From Escherichia phage T4, in sequence record NC_000866.4: DNA of 64,000 bases; one strand, written 5' to 3'. The notes beneath the pieces were generated by a model. It searched no databases. It worked only from the letters and a program-made list of their open reading frames with translations, and was not told the origin of the DNA. This document shows positions 2,503-8,033 of the stretch, piece by piece. Position numbers and translations under genes: made by a program. Positions within the stretch are counted from its first letter, which is position 1. Each line of letters begins with the position of its first letter.

Positions 2503-3490
<988 letters not shown>

Positions 3491-3651
3491 TCAGTGATAA
3501 AGTTATTTAAATTTTGAGCATATTTCTTTTCATCAAAAATCTTTTGCTGTCTGCGTAACCGCCATGGCATTTCAATGAACATACGCCATATCCCTAGATA
3601 ATACCGCTGCTGTAAAAATATTAACAAGTATAGTTAAAAGAATCCAATCGC

Positions 3652-3960
3652 CTATTCTGTCCATTGGATTTTTATAAAAAAGTAAAATACGAATGATGAT
3701 ATAGGAAGACTAATGATATACCACAGAAGAACCTTCTTATCTGTGAACCAATCAGCATTCGTTAACTTAGCGCGACCATTTTGAATACACACGAATTTAT
3801 CATCTGTTACAGTAAATGGCTTAGCTGCTTGATATCCCATTCTAAACTCCCTAATTAATCGTTTCTTTGTATCTTCGGAACAACCATTCCAATCAACTCT
3901 ATCAACTGGAATGCCATCATCCCCATCATCTAAATCATACCAGCGAGTTTTTAAAATCAT
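3652..3960 (-). CDS. hypothetical early protein with C-terminal hydrophobic segment (T4 e.2 position)
   Basis: 102-aa ORF; C-terminal LLWYIISLPISSFVFYFFI looks like a transmembrane helix. Confidence 0.55.
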   Translation of the reverse strand: MILKTRWYDLDDGDDGIPVDRVDWNGCSEDTKKRLIREFRMGYQAAKPFTVTDDKFVCIQNGRAKLTNADWFTDKKVLLWYIISLPISSFVFYFFIKIQWTE

Positions 3961-4319
3961 TTAATTTTCCTGCAATCAATCACAAACTCTTTCATTGATT
4001 CATTTTCAATATAAGACATGTAGCTATTATATTCTTTTAATTGTATTTTGTAATCCTTTTTTCTTTGCCAATTTATTTTAAAATTATCATAATGAAAATA
4101 TAAAATGATACCAAAGAATGAAAACAATGAAATAATTTTAGTATAACAAAGCTCGCTCCAAACTTCTATTATATCTACTGTACCACTGATTTTTAAAATA
4201 AAACAGTCAATTAATAGTCCAATAAGACTACCTGTAAGAGCTGCAGCCAACGCCACAGCAAAAATTAAAAATGACTCAGAAAACGAATATTTGACTTTAT
4301 TTAGCTTTGGCTTTTGCAT
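3957..4319 (-). CDS. hypothetical small membrane protein (T4 e.3 position)
   Basis: 120-aa ORF with two hydrophobic helices; ATGA overlap with the upstream ORF. Confidence 0.55.
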   Translation of the reverse strand: MQKPKLNKVKYSFSESFLIFAVALAAALTGSLIGLLIDCFILKISGTVDIIEVWSELCYTKIISLFSFFGIILYFHYDNFKINWQRKKDYKIQLKEYNSYMSYIENESMKEFVIDCRKIK

Positions 4320-4714
4320 CGTGATTCCTTAACAAATTTCATAATTTCATTAAATTCATACTCAGCAAGTTTAAGCTGGTGTTCCTTTTTAATCTTTTTG
4401 CACTGGGCTTTCCAATCACGTACGCGTTTACGATAATGTCTTCCTTGATACCAGTATCCTATCCAATTTACGGGTACTAATAAAAATGGAACTACCAATG
4501 GAAGAGTTAGCATTAACATAATTATTACGCCAGAATCAATATCAGTCATAACATCTAAAACACCTCCAATAATCAATAGAATTACAAATGATATAGCTAT
4601 CACAGGACCTATTAATACATCAGTAGAAATTATCTGGCGCTTTAATTCATACTTCAAAGGTTTACTTGGAAGGTATAGTGATGGCTTTGACATATTCTCT
4701 ACATTCCTTAACAA
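4301..4714 (-). CDS. hypothetical small membrane protein (T4 e.4 position)
   Basis: 137-aa ORF with long hydrophobic stretches; start codon uncertain because the annotated start overlaps the upstream ORF by 53 nt. Confidence 0.5.
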   Translation of the reverse strand: MLRNVENMSKPSLYLPSKPLKYELKRQIISTDVLIGPVIAISFVILLIIGGVLDVMTDIDSGVIIMLMLTLPLVVPFLLVPVNWIGYWYQGRHYRKRVRDWKAQCKKIKKEHQLKLAEYEFNEIMKFVKESRCKSQS

Positions 4715-5270
4715 ATTTTTCTAGTAATAAATCACTTTCAAAATTAGGATTTTCCACTAATTTATCAAAAAGATCATCAACAATATTCAAGATATTTCTT
4801 TTACTAAGAATACGTTTATTTTCATGCTTCGTTTCAGAATCAACTATAAGAGTAAAGAAATATTTCTTTCCCTGAAATTTTACCGTAGTATCAATATAAA
4901 ATAAATTTGACTTTTGTAAATTACGTTTAAACCATGCGTCACTTAAACTATAAACACCGAGATAATCAAAATCGTCGTTTAAATAACAAACTGACCATTC
5001 AGGAGAAATGAAATCAGTAAATTCAACATCAAAATCACATGTCAATGAATGAATTGATTCAATACTGTTAATAAGTATTCCAGGACGTATTAAAGACTTT
5101 TTACCTCTGGAAAATCTTCCAGAAAGACTTTCATCAGTTTCATATGAAGAACCCCAATAATAATTACGTCCTTTTGCCATATGTTTAAGAGCATTTAGTA
5201 ATTGGTCTGGAACATCAACGTGTCTTTGGAACTCTTCAAACATTGAATTGAAATCACTTTGCATTTTCAT
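4662..5270 (-). CDS. hypothetical early protein (T4 e.5 position)
   Basis: 202-aa ORF; no motif recognised. Confidence 0.6.
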   Translation of the reverse strand: MKMQSDFNSMFEEFQRHVDVPDQLLNALKHMAKGRNYYWGSSYETDESLSGRFSRGKKSLIRPGILINSIESIHSLTCDFDVEFTDFISPEWSVCYLNDDFDYLGVYSLSDAWFKRNLQKSNLFYIDTTVKFQGKKYFFTLIVDSETKHENKRILSKRNILNIVDDLFDKLVENPNFESDLLLEKFVKECREYVKAITIPSK

Positions 5271-5290
5271 TCCTATTTACTCCAAGTAAT

Positions 5291-5306
5291 AGGGGCCGAA
5301 GCCCCT
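5291..5306 (-). other. GC-rich tetraloop RNA hairpin (AGGGGC-UUCG-GCCCCU on the transcript)
   Basis: perfect 6-bp GC stem with UUCG loop between e.6 and e.5; identical 19-mer recurs at 46166..46184. Confidence 0.5.
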
Positions 5307-5311
5307 TATCA

Positions 5312-5905
5312 TTATTTCAGAGAATTAATATATTCCTGAACATCGGCAGAGGTAGTTTCAACCCCAGAAATATTACCATTAAAGGTTTCAACTCGAGCAA
5401 GAGTATCTTCAATATCAACCTTAGTCAGTGCTGCAATTTCAACTACATCATCAGCAGTACTAATTCCAAGGGCATTTGCTGCACGAGTTTCACGGATATA
5501 TTCCAATTTAACTGCAAGTTCTTGGCGAGCATCATCTAACTCAACTACTTTCTTGGCGATTTCAATTCGCATTTCAGCATAACCATCAGCTTTAGTAGTC
5601 AGCTGTTCAGCTGTTCGACGATATAGCAAGCCGAGTTTAGCATGCATTGTTACATCTTGACCTTCGGAAAGAAGCTTGCGAATTTCACGCTCTTTTGATT
5701 CGGCCTGTTTATTCTTTTCAACAATAAGTTCACGAATACGTTTTTCTTCATTAATAGATTTAACAGAAGCAGTTTTTAGGTCTTTAATTTTATCAAGTAG
5801 TTTTGCTGCTGCAGCAGTATACTGTTCTTCAACAGATAGATTTTTAGCCATTGCAGAACCAAGTTTAGTGCGAATAAACTCAACAATTTTCTTCAGTGTG
5901 TTCAT
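5312..5905 (-). CDS. hypothetical coiled-coil protein (T4 e.6 position)
   Basis: 197-aa ORF rich in K/E/R/A with coiled-coil character; possible PspA/IM30-like fold (speculative). Confidence 0.6.
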
Positions 5906-5934
5906 AGTATTTCCTTAGGTTGGTATAATTAGAT

Positions 5935-5967
5935 AATATAATATCACGTTTCTAATAGATTGTAAAC
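5935..5967 (-). promoter_or_regulatory. early promoter (-35 GTTTAC) upstream of e.6
   Basis: minus-strand GTTTAC at 5967..5962; AT-rich -10 (ATATTA/TATTAT) after a 17-nt spacer. Confidence 0.4.
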
Positions 5968-6303
5968 TTATTCTTCGTCTAGCTCGTCGATAAAGGCGTT
6001 GATGGCCTCGATAATGGCATCATTGATAGCCAATAAAATAAAATCATCGTCAGTACCTTTAGAAGATTCTAAAGCATTGATATATGCTTGGTTGACGAGT
6101 TCCCAAGCCTTTTTAAAATAAGGAGCTTCATCATCAGGACAAATATCCCGCACGCCTTCAAAGATACGTTTGGCATAATCTAACACCCATTGTACAGGCA
6201 TGTTTTGAGAACGTTCGTTAAACTCTTTAAAGTCCTTAGATTCAAAAAGCTCTTCAGGATAATTATTTCTATTACAAAAAGCTTTACTAAAGTTACGTTT
6301 CAT
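5968..6303 (-). CDS. hypothetical acidic protein (T4 e.7 position)
   Basis: 111-aa ORF; no motif recognised. Confidence 0.6.
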   Translation of the reverse strand: MKRNFSKAFCNRNNYPEELFESKDFKEFNERSQNMPVQWVLDYAKRIFEGVRDICPDDEAPYFKKAWELVNQAYINALESSKGTDDDFILLAINDAIIEAINAFIDELDEE

Positions 6304-6324
6304 AATGTTTTCCTCATTTGTATA

Positions 6325-6359
6325 GGCTCATAATATCTCAATCATCAGCCTATGTAAAC
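6325..6359 (-). promoter_or_regulatory. early promoter (-35 GTTTAC) upstream of e.7
   Basis: minus-strand GTTTAC at 6359..6354; 7-bp inverted repeat ATAGGCT/AGCCTAT flanks the -10 region. Confidence 0.4.
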
Positions 6360-6623
6360 TTATTTCATATTATTGAAATATTCTTCTGCGATTTCGTCGT
6401 TATCATGGTAAACTTTAGAAGACAGTTTAACATAACTTTCAGCAGTGAACATGTTAATCACAACCTTTACAGTATACCACTGACCGTCTTCATTACCCAT
6501 TACTGCGTAAGTTTCAAACATCGGATGGTCAGGACCGATAACTTTAATATCATTCACCGTACGACCGAAATCTTCTGAAACACATTTCATAAAGAAGTTG
6601 AAAAGTTCACCGTAATTATCCAT
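6360..6623 (-). CDS. hypothetical protein (T4 e.8 position)
   Basis: start moved to the internal ATG at 6623 (SD GGAGAATAAA upstream) because the longer track ORF (to 6686) would begin upstream of its own promoter. Confidence 0.55.
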   Translation of the reverse strand: MDNYGELFNFFMKCVSEDFGRTVNDIKVIGPDHPMFETYAVMGNEDGQWYTVKVVINMFTAESYVKLSSKVYHDNDEIAEEYFNNMK

Positions 6624-6666
6624 TTTATTCTCCAAGTTATTTTCTGTATCAGTAGTTGATAGTTGT

Positions 6667-6696
6667 ATAGTACCATGGAAGAACAAGGATGTAAAC
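6667..6696 (-). promoter_or_regulatory. early promoter (-35 GTTTAC, -10 TACTAT) upstream of e.8
   Basis: minus-strand GTTTAC at 6696..6691, TACTAT at 6672..6667, conserved CTATCAACTAC leader downstream. Confidence 0.5.
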
Positions 6697-6828
6697 AGTT
6701 TTGTGAAAAAATTTTTAAAAAGTTTTAGGGAATTCTAGGGCGGAGAGGGGCAATTAAAAGATAGGATAATATATTATAAAGGGTATAAACTAAATGATGC
6801 CTAGAGAGGTCTGGAAAGGCTTAGATAC

Positions 6829-6857
6829 CAAAAAGCCCCAACCTTTCGGTCGGGGCT
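6829..6857 (-). terminator. rho-independent terminator ending the tRNA / stable-RNA transcription unit
   Basis: minus-strand transcript forms GCCCCGACC-GAAA-GGUUGGGGC (9-bp stem, GNRA loop) followed by UUUUU. Confidence 0.65.
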
Positions 6858-7172
6858 AACCGTTGCGGCAACCTTGTCGGGGTTCCACCTGCCAAGGCAA
6901 GTGTTTGTACGAAACGCCGGGATTCGAACCCGGTTATTAAGTAGTTGACGCTACTCAATATTTTTAAAAGGCCATATCTCAACCATATCCGAACGTTCCG
7001 TCAAAAACGCTACTCGGCTTACGGCAAAGATATTTCCTCGAATCGATAATTTGGTGCGCCGTTTCTGCTGTGATGTAAGAGGGCATCAATAAACGCAAAG
7101 ATTATTAACGCAATTCCTTACTCAGGGAACCATCAGTCCGACGACTTACCGGTAGCGACCCGGTTTCTCATT
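6858..7172 (-). ncRNA. two small stable tRNA-like RNAs (T4 species 1 / species 2 RNAs, rnaC and rnaD); internal boundary not resolved
   Basis: non-coding ~315-nt interval between tRNA-Arg and the terminator; contains a tRNA-like T-arm (CCGGG-UUCGAAU-CCCGG); matches the position of the T4 stable RNAs. Confidence 0.45.
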
Positions 7173-7247
7173 TGGTATCCCGCCCTGGGATCGAACCAGG
7201 ACCGCAAACTTAGAAGGATCGTATGCTATCCATTACACCAGCGGGAC
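7173..7247 (-). tRNA. tRNA-Arg (anticodon TCT), CCA encoded
   Basis: reverse complement reads GTCCCGC...CCTTCTAAG...GGTTCGATCC...GCGGGATACCA with a paired acceptor stem and canonical T-arm. Confidence 0.85.
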
Positions 7248-7252
7248 GTAAT

Positions 7253-7918
7253 TTAAAATTTCATTTTTCGACCTTTAAACCATCCTTCTGGAATTGGGTC
7301 AGTTTTCTTAATACGTTTAGAAACTTTTTCATCTAATGAATGAATCCACATCATACCGAATTGGGAATTCTTTTCACCTTTCTGGTGATTATTTTTGGCG
7401 TGAGATTCTTTCATTTTATTAATAGTTTCAGGAGTATGATGCTTATTTAGAAATCTGCTATTATTTAAAAATTTTTCCCTGTATTCAGGAGTTGACCACA
7501 AACGTTTAAATACATTTGAACCAATTTTACGATATTTTTCTTGAAGTAAAATATCATTTTCAAAACGTGACTTAAACGATTTAGCTCCTTTTAAGCTAGC
7601 ATCTTTCTTCTGGTTTAGCATTCCAGGAATATTTACATGATCCCATCCACCTTCACCGCCAAGTTTTAAATTATACACATCTGGTCTATTTAAAAACTCT
7701 TCTGTGACAATATTTTTCTCGGCTTCAAGCATAGATTCTTTATCGTCAAAATACTCTAATATTTCTTTAGAAAAATTTTCTATACCATATTTATCTTGGG
7801 CTCTTTTTAATAATTTACCAGAACCCATATATCCATCATCTAAATTTTCGGTAGAATGCACACCAATATAAATTTTATTATTAATTTTATTTGTTATTTT
7901 ATAAGTGTAATAGAACAT
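7253..7918 (-). CDS. segB: GIY-YIG homing endonuclease
   Basis: 221-aa ORF with GIY-YIG motif (KIYIGVHSTENLDDGYMGSG); inserted between tRNA-Ile and tRNA-Arg as in T4. Confidence 0.85.
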   Translation of the reverse strand: MFYYTYKITNKINNKIYIGVHSTENLDDGYMGSGKLLKRAQDKYGIENFSKEILEYFDDKESMLEAEKNIVTEEFLNRPDVYNLKLGGEGGWDHVNIPGMLNQKKDASLKGAKSFKSRFENDILLQEKYRKIGSNVFKRLWSTPEYREKFLNNSRFLNKHHTPETINKMKESHAKNNHQKGEKNSQFGMMWIHSLDEKVSKRIKKTDPIPEGWFKGRKMKF

Positions 7919-7959: not shown

Positions 7960-8033
7960 TGACCCAGACCAGATTTGAACTGGTAACCTTTCCCTTATGA
8001 GGGGACTGCTGCTAACCATTGAGCTACAGGGCC
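7960..8033 (-). tRNA. tRNA-Ile (anticodon CAT; would score as Met by anticodon alone)
   Basis: reverse complement GGCCCTGTAGCTCAATGG...CTCATAA...GGTTACCAGTTCAAATCTGGT; last tRNA of the 7-gene subcluster, the position of T4 tRNA-Ile. Confidence 0.8.

Follow-up and report, generated by a model that had tools for sequence, protein, structure and literature searches.

What do the seven small genes between nudE and the stable RNA genes of Escherichia phage T4 contribute to infection? They occupy positions 3,652 to 6,623 of a 64,000-nucleotide stretch of the T4 genome (sequence record NC_000866.4), referred to here as the window, and have long been known as open reading frames (ORFs), since the 1990s and first under the names msp1 to msp7; their annotation is still "hypothetical". 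An earlier reading of the bare sequence (the original prediction) described three of them as encoding adjacent membrane proteins and one as encoding a PspA-like coiled coil, and listed superinfection exclusion, control of host envelope stress, and anti-defense functions as candidate roles. In the current work, we describe profile, fold, and gene-neighborhood analyses of this cluster. The 197-residue product of e.6 very probably represents a divergent, phage-specific branch of the PspA/IM30 superfamily, and its gene belongs to a conserved core that also includes e.5 and a family of proteins with two transmembrane (TM) helices. We hold with moderate confidence that this core forms a membrane-stabilizing module resembling the phage shock protein (Psp) system, in which e.6 would act as PspA and Vipp1 do and the products of the adjoining genes would serve as its partners.

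Relationship of e.6 to PspA and Vipp1

A search of 5.8 billion proteins with e.6 returned phage relatives only, at 48% identity or more; no precomputed PspA_IM30 annotation is attached to these relatives, and two truncated matches bear unrelated Pfam accessions. A profile built from 30 close homologues (A1) was then compared with 1.84 billion cluster representatives, of which 45 matched at E ≤ 1e-3. These form a small, compact family with full-length members of about 195–209 residues and several short fragments besides, and no PspA-sized outgroup was found by this search. In the PDB, the Vipp1 matches of A1 were no better than E about 1, yet the alignment was colinear from the N-terminus. Significance was attained only with a deeper alignment of 39 members (A3), to which sequences only 18–30% identical to T4 e.6 had been added. 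With A3 as the query against 177,635 PDB sequences, the top seven matches were all Vipp1 or PspA (E 1.1e-4 to 9.4e-4), with colinear alignments of 1–146 to 1–147 that start at residue 1 in both partners.

The Pfam family PF04012 (PspA_IM30) is matched by 5 of the 39 family members, and P0066 (35.1 bits) and P0068 (39.0 bits) lie above its gathering score of 33.9 bits. Proteins resembling P0068 are found in Ackermannviridae such as Klebsiella phage May, whose gp064 scores 32.1 bits on PF04012 (E 1.1e-7) and aligns with T4 e.6 over the full length (E 8e-14). T4 e.6 itself falls below the threshold, and family membership by Pfam therefore rests on transitive homology. A direct BLASTP comparison with E. 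coli PspA gave a colinear alignment of residues 38–183 to 38–179 (E 0.032), which places RVETF of e.6 opposite RFESF of PspA in the region of helix alpha-4. Identity of the family to host PspA is only about 25% or less.

Structure prediction agrees with the profile searches. The AlphaFold2 model, computed on A1, contains helices at residues 2–22, 25–80, and 86–145, followed by short low-confidence helices. The two long helices form the alpha-1/alpha-2+3 hairpin of the ESCRT-III core fold, with a block-mean predicted local distance difference test score (pLDDT) of about 82–95 across residues 31–130. When the model was compared with the PDB by Foldseek, the top eight matches were all Vipp1 (E 8.6e-4 to 9e-3, probability 1.0), and the archaeal ESCRT-III protein CdvB2 and PspA (7abk, probability 0.95) appeared further down the list. 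Helix 2–22, modeled at low pLDDT, would correspond to the amphipathic helix alpha-0, the membrane-binding element of the family; its hydrophobic moment (0.45) is close to that of E. coli PspA (0.42), the value for Synechocystis Vipp1 being 0.57.

The link between e.6 and PspA is not new. The e.6 homologue of Klebsiella phage Metamorpho (gp163) was matched to PspA (4WHE) at 99.9% by HHpred in a 2021 genome announcement (PMC7862958), and the homologue of Klebsiella phage vB_KpnM-VAC36, 64% identical, is labeled 'shock protein A transcription regulator' in GenBank (MZ571829). Both are direct homologues of T4 e.6 with the PspA similarity already noted, and each of these notes concerns one protein; e.5, the two-TM family, its motif, and a function are not part of them. 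Phage members go unmentioned in a recent survey of Psp systems (PMC11237479). Gene-name searches of the literature brought up only the Metamorpho note, omics tables, and CRISPRi-ART tables.

Like PspA, Vipp1 (IM30), and LiaH, e.6 is predicted to begin with an amphipathic helix that leads into a hairpin of about 55 plus 60 residues; it is colinear with these proteins from residue 1 to about 146 (about 180 by BLASTP), is of similar size (197 versus 222 amino acids), and is encoded alongside small membrane proteins, a place taken by PspB/C and LiaI in the bacterial systems. Unlike them, it is encoded by a lytic phage behind a T4 early promoter, scores below the Pfam threshold in T4, and has a C-terminal third of its own. 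The PspA-like look that the original prediction had noted in this coiled coil is borne out by the A3 profile, by Pfam members of the family, by Foldseek, and by the published HHpred match.

Not every comparison points in this direction. T4 e.6 alone has no Pfam match at E ≤ 1, the composition bias term amounts to 16.5 of about 24 bits in the A3 matches to the PDB, and when A3 was compared by hhalign with E. coli PspA as a single sequence, only the first 45 columns were aligned (probability 24%). The C-terminal third is family-specific: the Pfam and PDB alignments of the family end at about residue 146, and residues 146–197, which include an invariant G147 and T174-F175 and show no clear helix alpha-5, are poorly modeled and lie outside the PspA profile. 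These points weigh against the assignment, and the missing Pfam match and the high composition bias would fit a convergent resemblance, with e.6 as simply a long coiled coil, possibly of BAR-like or scaffold type, that shares neither ancestry nor mechanism with PspA. The PDB is rich in coiled coils, yet every one of the seven best A3 matches was Vipp1 or PspA from residue 1. Two family members exceed the Pfam cut-off, and the Foldseek and HHpred results name the same family; a BAR-like fold would in any case imply membrane binding. We regard the homology as solid and convergence as very improbable.

In E. coli, PspA combines the role of an effector with that of an anti-activator of PspF, and a member of its family in a phage could accordingly be a regulatory mimic, one that blocks or hijacks the phage-shock response by binding Psp components of the host (PspF, PspB/C, or PspA polymers). 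The hairpin region retained by e.6 is the site of PspF contact in PspA, and the GenBank label on the VAC36 homologue would also suit such a role. T4, however, shuts off host transcription within minutes, and given this shut-off the repression of a sigma-54 operon would add little. A mimic would also be expected to track its host more closely than a family that is found in phages of Aeromonas, Klebsiella, and others at such low identity to host PspA, and the predicted amphipathic N-terminal helix, the part of PspA that binds membranes, has been kept. Mimicry is, in our judgment, unlikely.

The conserved neighbors of e.6 and their C-terminal motif

All seven ORFs of the original prediction are present on the minus strand at the coordinates it gave. 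T4 records name them e.2, e.3, e.4, e.5, e.6, e.7, and e.8, the older GenBank entry L13089 has them as msp7 to msp1 in the same order, and they are flanked by nudE (e.1) on one side and by rnaC/rnaD, tRNA-Arg, and segB on the other. Positions 3000–7300 of the window match T4 genome records at 99.8% identity over the full length and several hundred T-even relatives at 80–96%. Every one of the seven ORFs matches a PHROG family (E ≤ 1e-55); these families are all of 'unknown function', with the generic label 'membrane protein' on phrog_2203 as the sole exception. In an RNA and protein time course of T4 infection, early RNA was recorded for all seven genes, in agreement with their description as early, and all seven proteins were detected, e.4, e.5, e.7, and e.8 as early, e.2 and e.6 as middle, and e.3 as late (PMC9697503 supplement). 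Because of the PHROG matches, the early RNA, and the detected proteins, e.2–e.8 are more than chance ORFs. Direct scans of the seven T4 proteins against Pfam, NCBIfam, and PADLOC gave noise-level matches only, with nothing at E ≤ 0.1 among the PADLOC defense families, and PDB sequence searches with single e.5, e.6, e.7, and e.8 sequences found nothing. No known anti-phage defense or anti-defense family was matched by e.2–e.8 in PADLOC or in the PHROG functional categories.

Homologues of e.6 occur in 1,105 phage records, which comprise Tequatrovirus, Mosigvirus, Klebsiella, Enterobacter, Citrobacter, Yersinia, and Aeromonas phages as well as RB43-like phages, and more remotely in Ackermannviridae. 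We collected 45 e.6-bearing loci and classed their downstream ORFs by iterated hidden Markov models (HMMs). The gene immediately downstream of e.6 is an e.5 homologue in 42 of the 45; Aeromonas phages are included, in which e.5 is sometimes duplicated. Members of the two-TM family, in one to three copies, were found within the 5-kb flank of 37 loci, and in 28 loci they come directly after e.5. Since the genomes are related, none of these counts represents independent events. The genes e.7 and e.8 are sporadic (10/45 and 14/45 loci) and therefore fall outside the conserved core, which consists of e.6, e.5, and the two-TM proteins e.4, e.3, and e.2. The original prediction had treated the seven proteins as a group without recognizable motifs; the lack of direct Pfam or NCBIfam matches stands, and the seven ORFs are not one unit. 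Rather than being absent from most related phages, e.6 and e.5 are widely conserved, and the pair persists amid differing surroundings, as in RB43, where e.6 lies between nrdD and nrdG, away from tRNA genes.

Two of the more distant loci deserve separate description. The RB43 e.6 gene (L009:3855-4447) appears split, with HMM matches in two ORFs of 54 and 87 amino acids, and a 205-residue ORF downstream of it, which ends in LEKFIHSCKK, is probably a very divergent e.5. In phage May (L006:5651-6381), the PspA homologue is followed by a 185-residue protein with an N-terminal TM segment and by a 60-residue TM protein, with no e.5 and no FIxxCR motif; the Ackermannviridae neighbors could be a different membrane set for the same kind of protein.

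The three adjacent membrane proteins were examined by Kyte-Doolittle analysis with a 19-residue window, which found the TM segments that had been claimed for them: one in e.2 (residues 78–96), two in e.3 (19–37 and 57–75), and two in e.4 (31–49 and 55–73). Their genes are translationally linked through overlapping starts and stops, as was also proposed; e.4 and e.3 overlap by 19 nt and e.3 and e.2 have an ATGA in common, and upstream of them e.5 and e.4 overlap by 32 nt, such that the e.4 start lies within the 3' end of e.5. Basic residues of the two-TM proteins cluster in the N-terminal stretch and in the long C-terminal tail, with few in the short loop between the TM helices. Because of this distribution, the positive-inside rule predicts N-in/C-in hairpins whose motif-bearing tails would all be cytoplasmic.

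Sequence comparison suggests that e.3 and e.4 are probably paralogous hairpin proteins. The e.3 protein cross-matches the e.4 family phrog_2604 (E 0.007), hhalign of strict e.3 and e.4 ortholog alignments gave E 8.6e-5 over 57 columns that span TM2 and the tail, and the iterated HMMs of the two have 53 hits in common. When profiles of e.3, e.4, and full-length e.2 are iterated, they gather largely one protein set; TM composition may contribute to this convergence. It is only through these iterated searches and the motif described below that e.2 is linked to the other two, and it probably belongs to the same family.

The product of e.2 in T4, with its single TM segment, is the frameshift-truncated remnant of a 162-residue two-TM protein. 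The intact form is seen in relatives such as Shigella phage Shfl2 (L003:3501-3989), where 162 residues comprise a soluble N-terminal domain, two TM helices, and a basic tail, and where the gene overlaps nudE by ATGA. Compared with Shfl2, T4 lacks one A in the A-run at 3669-3673, which leads to a stop at 3652-3654, and an extra T at 3596, 78 nt from the missing A, restores the original frame. The gene is thereby divided among three frames, one with the 102-residue product, one with the detached TM2, and one with the detached tail ("e.2b"). Relatives other than T4 match T4 e.2 solely over residues 1–95 or 1–97, and the annotation of T4T calls e.2 'probably split'. The 102-residue stump is still detected by proteomics, in the middle class (PMC9697503 supplement). 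By sequence, T4 e.2 is a decayed, pseudogene-like remnant. Programmed frameshifting was considered and rejected on the grounds that the two compensating single-base changes are separated by 78 nt that include a stop, and that they occur in the T4 lineage only.

The C-termini of four consecutive proteins, e.5, e.4, e.3, and intact e.2, have the motif F-[IV]-x-x-C-[RK] in common. T4 e.5 ends in ...EKFVKECREYVK, e.4 in ...MKFVKESRCKSQS, with FVKESRC as a shifted form of the motif, and e.3 in ...KEFVIDCRKIK; the corresponding sites in the window are at about 4695-4712 (e.5), 4313-4333 (e.4), 3969-3986 (e.3), and 3484-3501 (e.2b). Among 16 very divergent e.5 homologues (12–47% identity), the motif Phe and Cys are the only invariant columns. 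Counted as F[IVL]xx[CS][RKI] or the shifted e.4 form within the last 40 residues, the motif is present in 42 of 46 e.5 homologues and in 40/51, 46/55, and 31/36 members of three two-TM hit sets, which overlap with one another. It occurs across many T4-like genera (loci L003-L049), and within the window the strict pattern is found in 2 of 108 ORFs of at least 60 residues, both of which belong to the e.2–e.8 cluster. No description of this motif was found in the literature searched. A precomputed Pfam label, PF26876, is attached to the e.5 relatives P0091-P0104.

In T4, the motif codons double as the Shine-Dalgarno sequence of the next gene (AAGGAA or AGGAAA), and a 16-nt DNA repeat, AAATTTGTTAAGGAAT, is present at the e.5/e.4 and e.4/e.3 junctions. 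The motif as a mere by-product of these downstream signals was a candidate that we rejected. In 83 distinct motif contexts, Arg is encoded by CGN in 39 and by AGR in 30, both codons are used for Cys and for Phe, and the interval between the motif and the following start is anywhere from -7 to 149 nt. Because its codons vary synonymously, we take the motif to be conserved at the protein level.

A candidate membrane-stabilizing module

PspA-type proteins bind the stressed inner membrane via helix alpha-0, polymerize, and limit proton leakage, and small TM partners such as PspB/C, LiaI, and PspM are usual for PspA homologues (PMC11237479). The mechanism that we infer for the T4 cluster follows this pattern. 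Transcribed early from three tandem T4 early promoters before e.8, e.7, and e.6, the cluster would supply an e.6 protein that binds the cytoplasmic face of the inner membrane of the infected cell via its predicted N-terminal amphipathic helix, polymerizes via its long helical hairpin, and seals or stabilizes the stressed membrane such that proton-motive force is preserved. The e.5 protein and the small two-TM hairpin proteins would be partners, adaptors, or anchors of e.6, with the cytoplasmic C-terminal F-[IV]-x-x-C-[RK] helix as their shared docking element. The purpose would be to keep the inner membrane energized during infection; candidate stresses are the puncture of the membrane by injection at high multiplicity, the long period of lysis inhibition with a holin-loaded membrane, and membrane-depolarizing abortive-infection effectors. 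Such a role would account for genes that are conserved in many phages and yet can be dispensed with on laboratory strains, the selective benefit of the module presumably being conditional. Among the roles listed in the original prediction, only stabilization of the envelope or membrane gains support, indirectly, through PspA homology, and we consider this functional model plausible.

The resemblance to bacterial systems extends to the partners in part. Like PspB/PspC and LiaI, the proteins e.4, e.3, and intact e.2 appear from their sequences to be small inner-membrane proteins with cytoplasmic helical tails, encoded beside a PspA-like gene. Unlike PspB and PspC (one TM helix) or the LiaI-LiaF-TM domain (four), they have two TM helices, and the C-terminal motif that they have in common with soluble e.5 is their own. 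The T4 cluster also lacks a PspF-type regulator, and e.5 and its two-TM neighbors have no detectable homology to PspB, PspC, or PspD (no direct comparison with LiaI was made). One match hints at more: hhalign of e.4 residues 60–97 with residues 4–41 of E. coli PspB (L050:2802-3026) gave E 5.8e-4 at a probability of 29% over 38 TM-dominated columns, a score that was reached by 0 of 100 block-shuffled PspB sequences. The alignment covers TM2 of e.4 and a W/Y/R-rich juxtamembrane stretch, and being TM-dominated it is a hint only. The e.5 and two-TM proteins thus seem analogous to PspB/PspC or LiaI rather than demonstrably homologous; the two-TM proteins may work like Psp partners without being members of those families.

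Several observations count against the module as proposed. The link of e.5 and the two-TM proteins to e.6 is drawn from adjacency and the shared motif, and part of the conservation of gene order among T4-like genomes is due to common descent. In Aeromonas phages, e.6 and e.5 are present but the flank contains no two-TM genes; in Ackermannviridae, e.6 is not accompanied by e.5; and intact e.2 has been lost in T4. Apart from the weak e.4-PspB match, nothing was obtained when the four families (e.2, e.3, e.4, and e.5) were compared by hhalign with PspB, PspC, and PspD of E. coli. When the genes were knocked down by CRISPR interference (CRISPRi) on a laboratory host, all seven were scored "Not Fit", that is, without a fitness effect (PMC11879866 supplement). 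This result is weak evidence and not decisive because the same table scores the lysozyme gene e as 'Not Fit' too, and a conditional benefit would be consistent with it.

The same observations bear on the alternative that e.2, e.3, e.4, and perhaps e.5 act independently of e.6, as superinfection-exclusion, injection-blocking, or anti-defense factors of the Imm/Sp type, their adjacency to e.6 being inherited gene order. The T4 proteins Imm (superinfection immunity) and Sp (spackle) are, as e.2–e.4, early, small, membrane-associated, and dispensable in the laboratory, and a small two-TM early protein is the format of Imm. The early genes of the cluster lie in a variable, accessory part of the genome, phages differ in the number of two-TM copies (none to three), e.2 has decayed in T4 at no obvious cost, and the knock-down had no laboratory fitness phenotype; all of this would suit independent action. 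Unlike Imm and Sp, e.2–e.4 have conserved tails that are predicted to be cytoplasmic, and their genes are linked to a PspA-like gene instead of standing alone. For a factor that excludes incoming DNA or acts against periplasmic lysozyme, a periplasmic orientation would be expected. A common partner or process is also argued for by the fact that soluble e.5 and the two-TM proteins bear the same motif, conserved at the protein level. The two-TM genes are moreover translationally chained behind e.5 and follow it directly in most of the collected loci, and no PADLOC or PHROG family of known function is matched. We regard independent action as rather unlikely.

Returning to the membrane-stabilizing module, a three-protein complex of e.2, e.3, and e.4, as the original prediction suggested, is plausible from their sequences. 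Redundant or alternative partners fit as well as an obligate three-part complex because other phages have one to three copies and intact e.2 has been lost in T4. A bolder version, which we put forward only tentatively and consider possible but doubtful, is that the core is a self-contained, phage-specific membrane-repair system. Here, e.6 would form an ESCRT-III-type polymer recruited or regulated by the soluble adaptor e.5 and by interchangeable two-TM anchors (e.4/e.3/e.2), all docking via the motif helix, which would keep the membrane sealed and energized and thereby stabilize lysis inhibition and/or neutralize membrane-depolarizing abortive-infection effectors. If true, this would be a form of anti-defense that repairs damage rather than inhibiting a defense protein.

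Expression signals, accessory genes, and implications

The coordinates of the genes and signals are compiled in Table 1. The T4-early-type -35 sequence is common to three tandem promoter-like sites, one each for e.8, e.7, and e.6, and the latter two begin immediately past the TAA stop of the upstream gene. The hairpin downstream of e.6 sits in the 41-nt spacer between e.6 and e.5 and has no U-run 3' of it; a terminator role is therefore less likely, and the hairpin is more likely an RNA-stability or processing element. It probably separates e.6 from the translationally chained e.5-e.4-e.3-e.2-nudE block.

Two of the gene starts need comment. The original prediction gave e.4 as 4301..4714 with a TTG start, but the ATG at 4693 is most likely the start instead because it has an AAGGAA Shine-Dalgarno sequence 8 nt upstream. 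For e.8, the longer TTG start at 6686 cannot be used because the e.8 promoter falls inside that extension.

Table 1. Features of the e.2–e.8 region; coordinates refer to the window
Feature	Coordinates	Strand	Description	Basis
Early promoter of e.8	6667..6695	-	GTTTACA -35, 17 nt, TACTAT -10 with TG	consensus scan and sequence reading; L13089 marks -35/-10 before msp1
e.8 (msp1)	6360..6623	-	87 aa, acidic, soluble	phrog_2678, E 1.2e-55
Early promoter of e.7	6330..6358	-	GTTTACA, 17 nt, TATTAT; right after e.8 stop	putative in L13089
e.7 (msp2)	5968..6303	-	111 aa, strongly acidic, 24 D/E vs 13 K/R	phrog_7266, E 2.8e-63
Early promoter of e.6	5938..5966	-	GTTTACA, 17 nt, TATTAT with TG; right after e.7 stop	annotated in L13089
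e.6 (msp3)	5312..5905	-	197 aa, divergent PspA/IM30 (Vipp1, ESCRT-III-like); predicted N-terminal amphipathic helix, long helical hairpin, family-specific C-terminal part	profile, fold, and Pfam searches
RNA hairpin	5291..5306	-	AGGGGC-UUCG-GCCCCU, perfect 6-bp G+C-rich stem, UUCG tetraloop	putative stem_loop in L13089
e.5 (msp4)	4662..5270	-	202 aa, soluble, conserved downstream neighbor of e.6; C-terminal helix with FVKECR	
e.4 (msp5)	4301..4693	-	130 aa, two-TM hairpin, predicted N-in/C-in, basic C-terminal helix predicted cytoplasmic	phrog_2604
e.3 (msp6)	3957..4319	-	120 aa, two-TM hairpin, probable e.4 paralogue	phrog_2330
e.2 (msp7; 'e.2a')	3652..3960	-	102 aa, truncated N-terminal part (soluble domain and TM1) of ancestral 162-aa two-TM protein	
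Out-of-frame e.2 3' remnants	3472..3664	-	TM2 in ORF 3572-3664; C-terminal helix with motif in 'e.2b' 3472-3582	

The genes e.7 and e.8 are separate, sporadic acidic early accessory genes, unrelated to the core module. No PDB, Pfam, NCBIfam, or PADLOC match was found for e.8, and Pfam and PDB sequence searches gave no informative match for e.7. An early promoter of its own and a patchy distribution, both of which are seen for each of these genes, are typical of accessory host-interaction genes. Beyond the cluster, the tRNA at 7960-8033 on the minus strand is called tRNA-Met (CAT anticodon) by ARAGORN and given as tRNA-Ile in T4 records; this mismatch is presumably the known reading of a modified CAU anticodon and not a sequence error.

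As far as we found, the new elements of this analysis are the conserved module of e.6, e.5, and two-TM proteins, the probable paralogy of the membrane proteins, the C-terminal motif with its protein-level conservation, and the decay that e.2 has undergone in T4. Should the functional model prove wrong, the annotation would still gain from e.6 as a PspA-like protein, from e.3, e.4, and probably e.2 as one paralogous family, and from T4 e.2 as a pseudogene-like remnant. The shared C-terminal motif provides a simple mutational handle on the model.

PspA owes the name "phage shock protein" to its induction in the host by a protein of filamentous phage. A lytic phage with a PspA/ESCRT-III-type protein of its own reverses this picture, in that the virus would stabilize the membrane of its host for its own benefit. 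If the model is true, five conserved orphans among the genes of the best-studied phage would acquire a function, and the PspA/Vipp1/ESCRT-III superfamily would gain a viral branch together with new partner proteins. The model would also offer a candidate explanation for the hours over which a holin-loaded membrane stays intact in the lysis inhibition of T-even phages, or for the survival of these phages under pore-forming abortive-infection systems.

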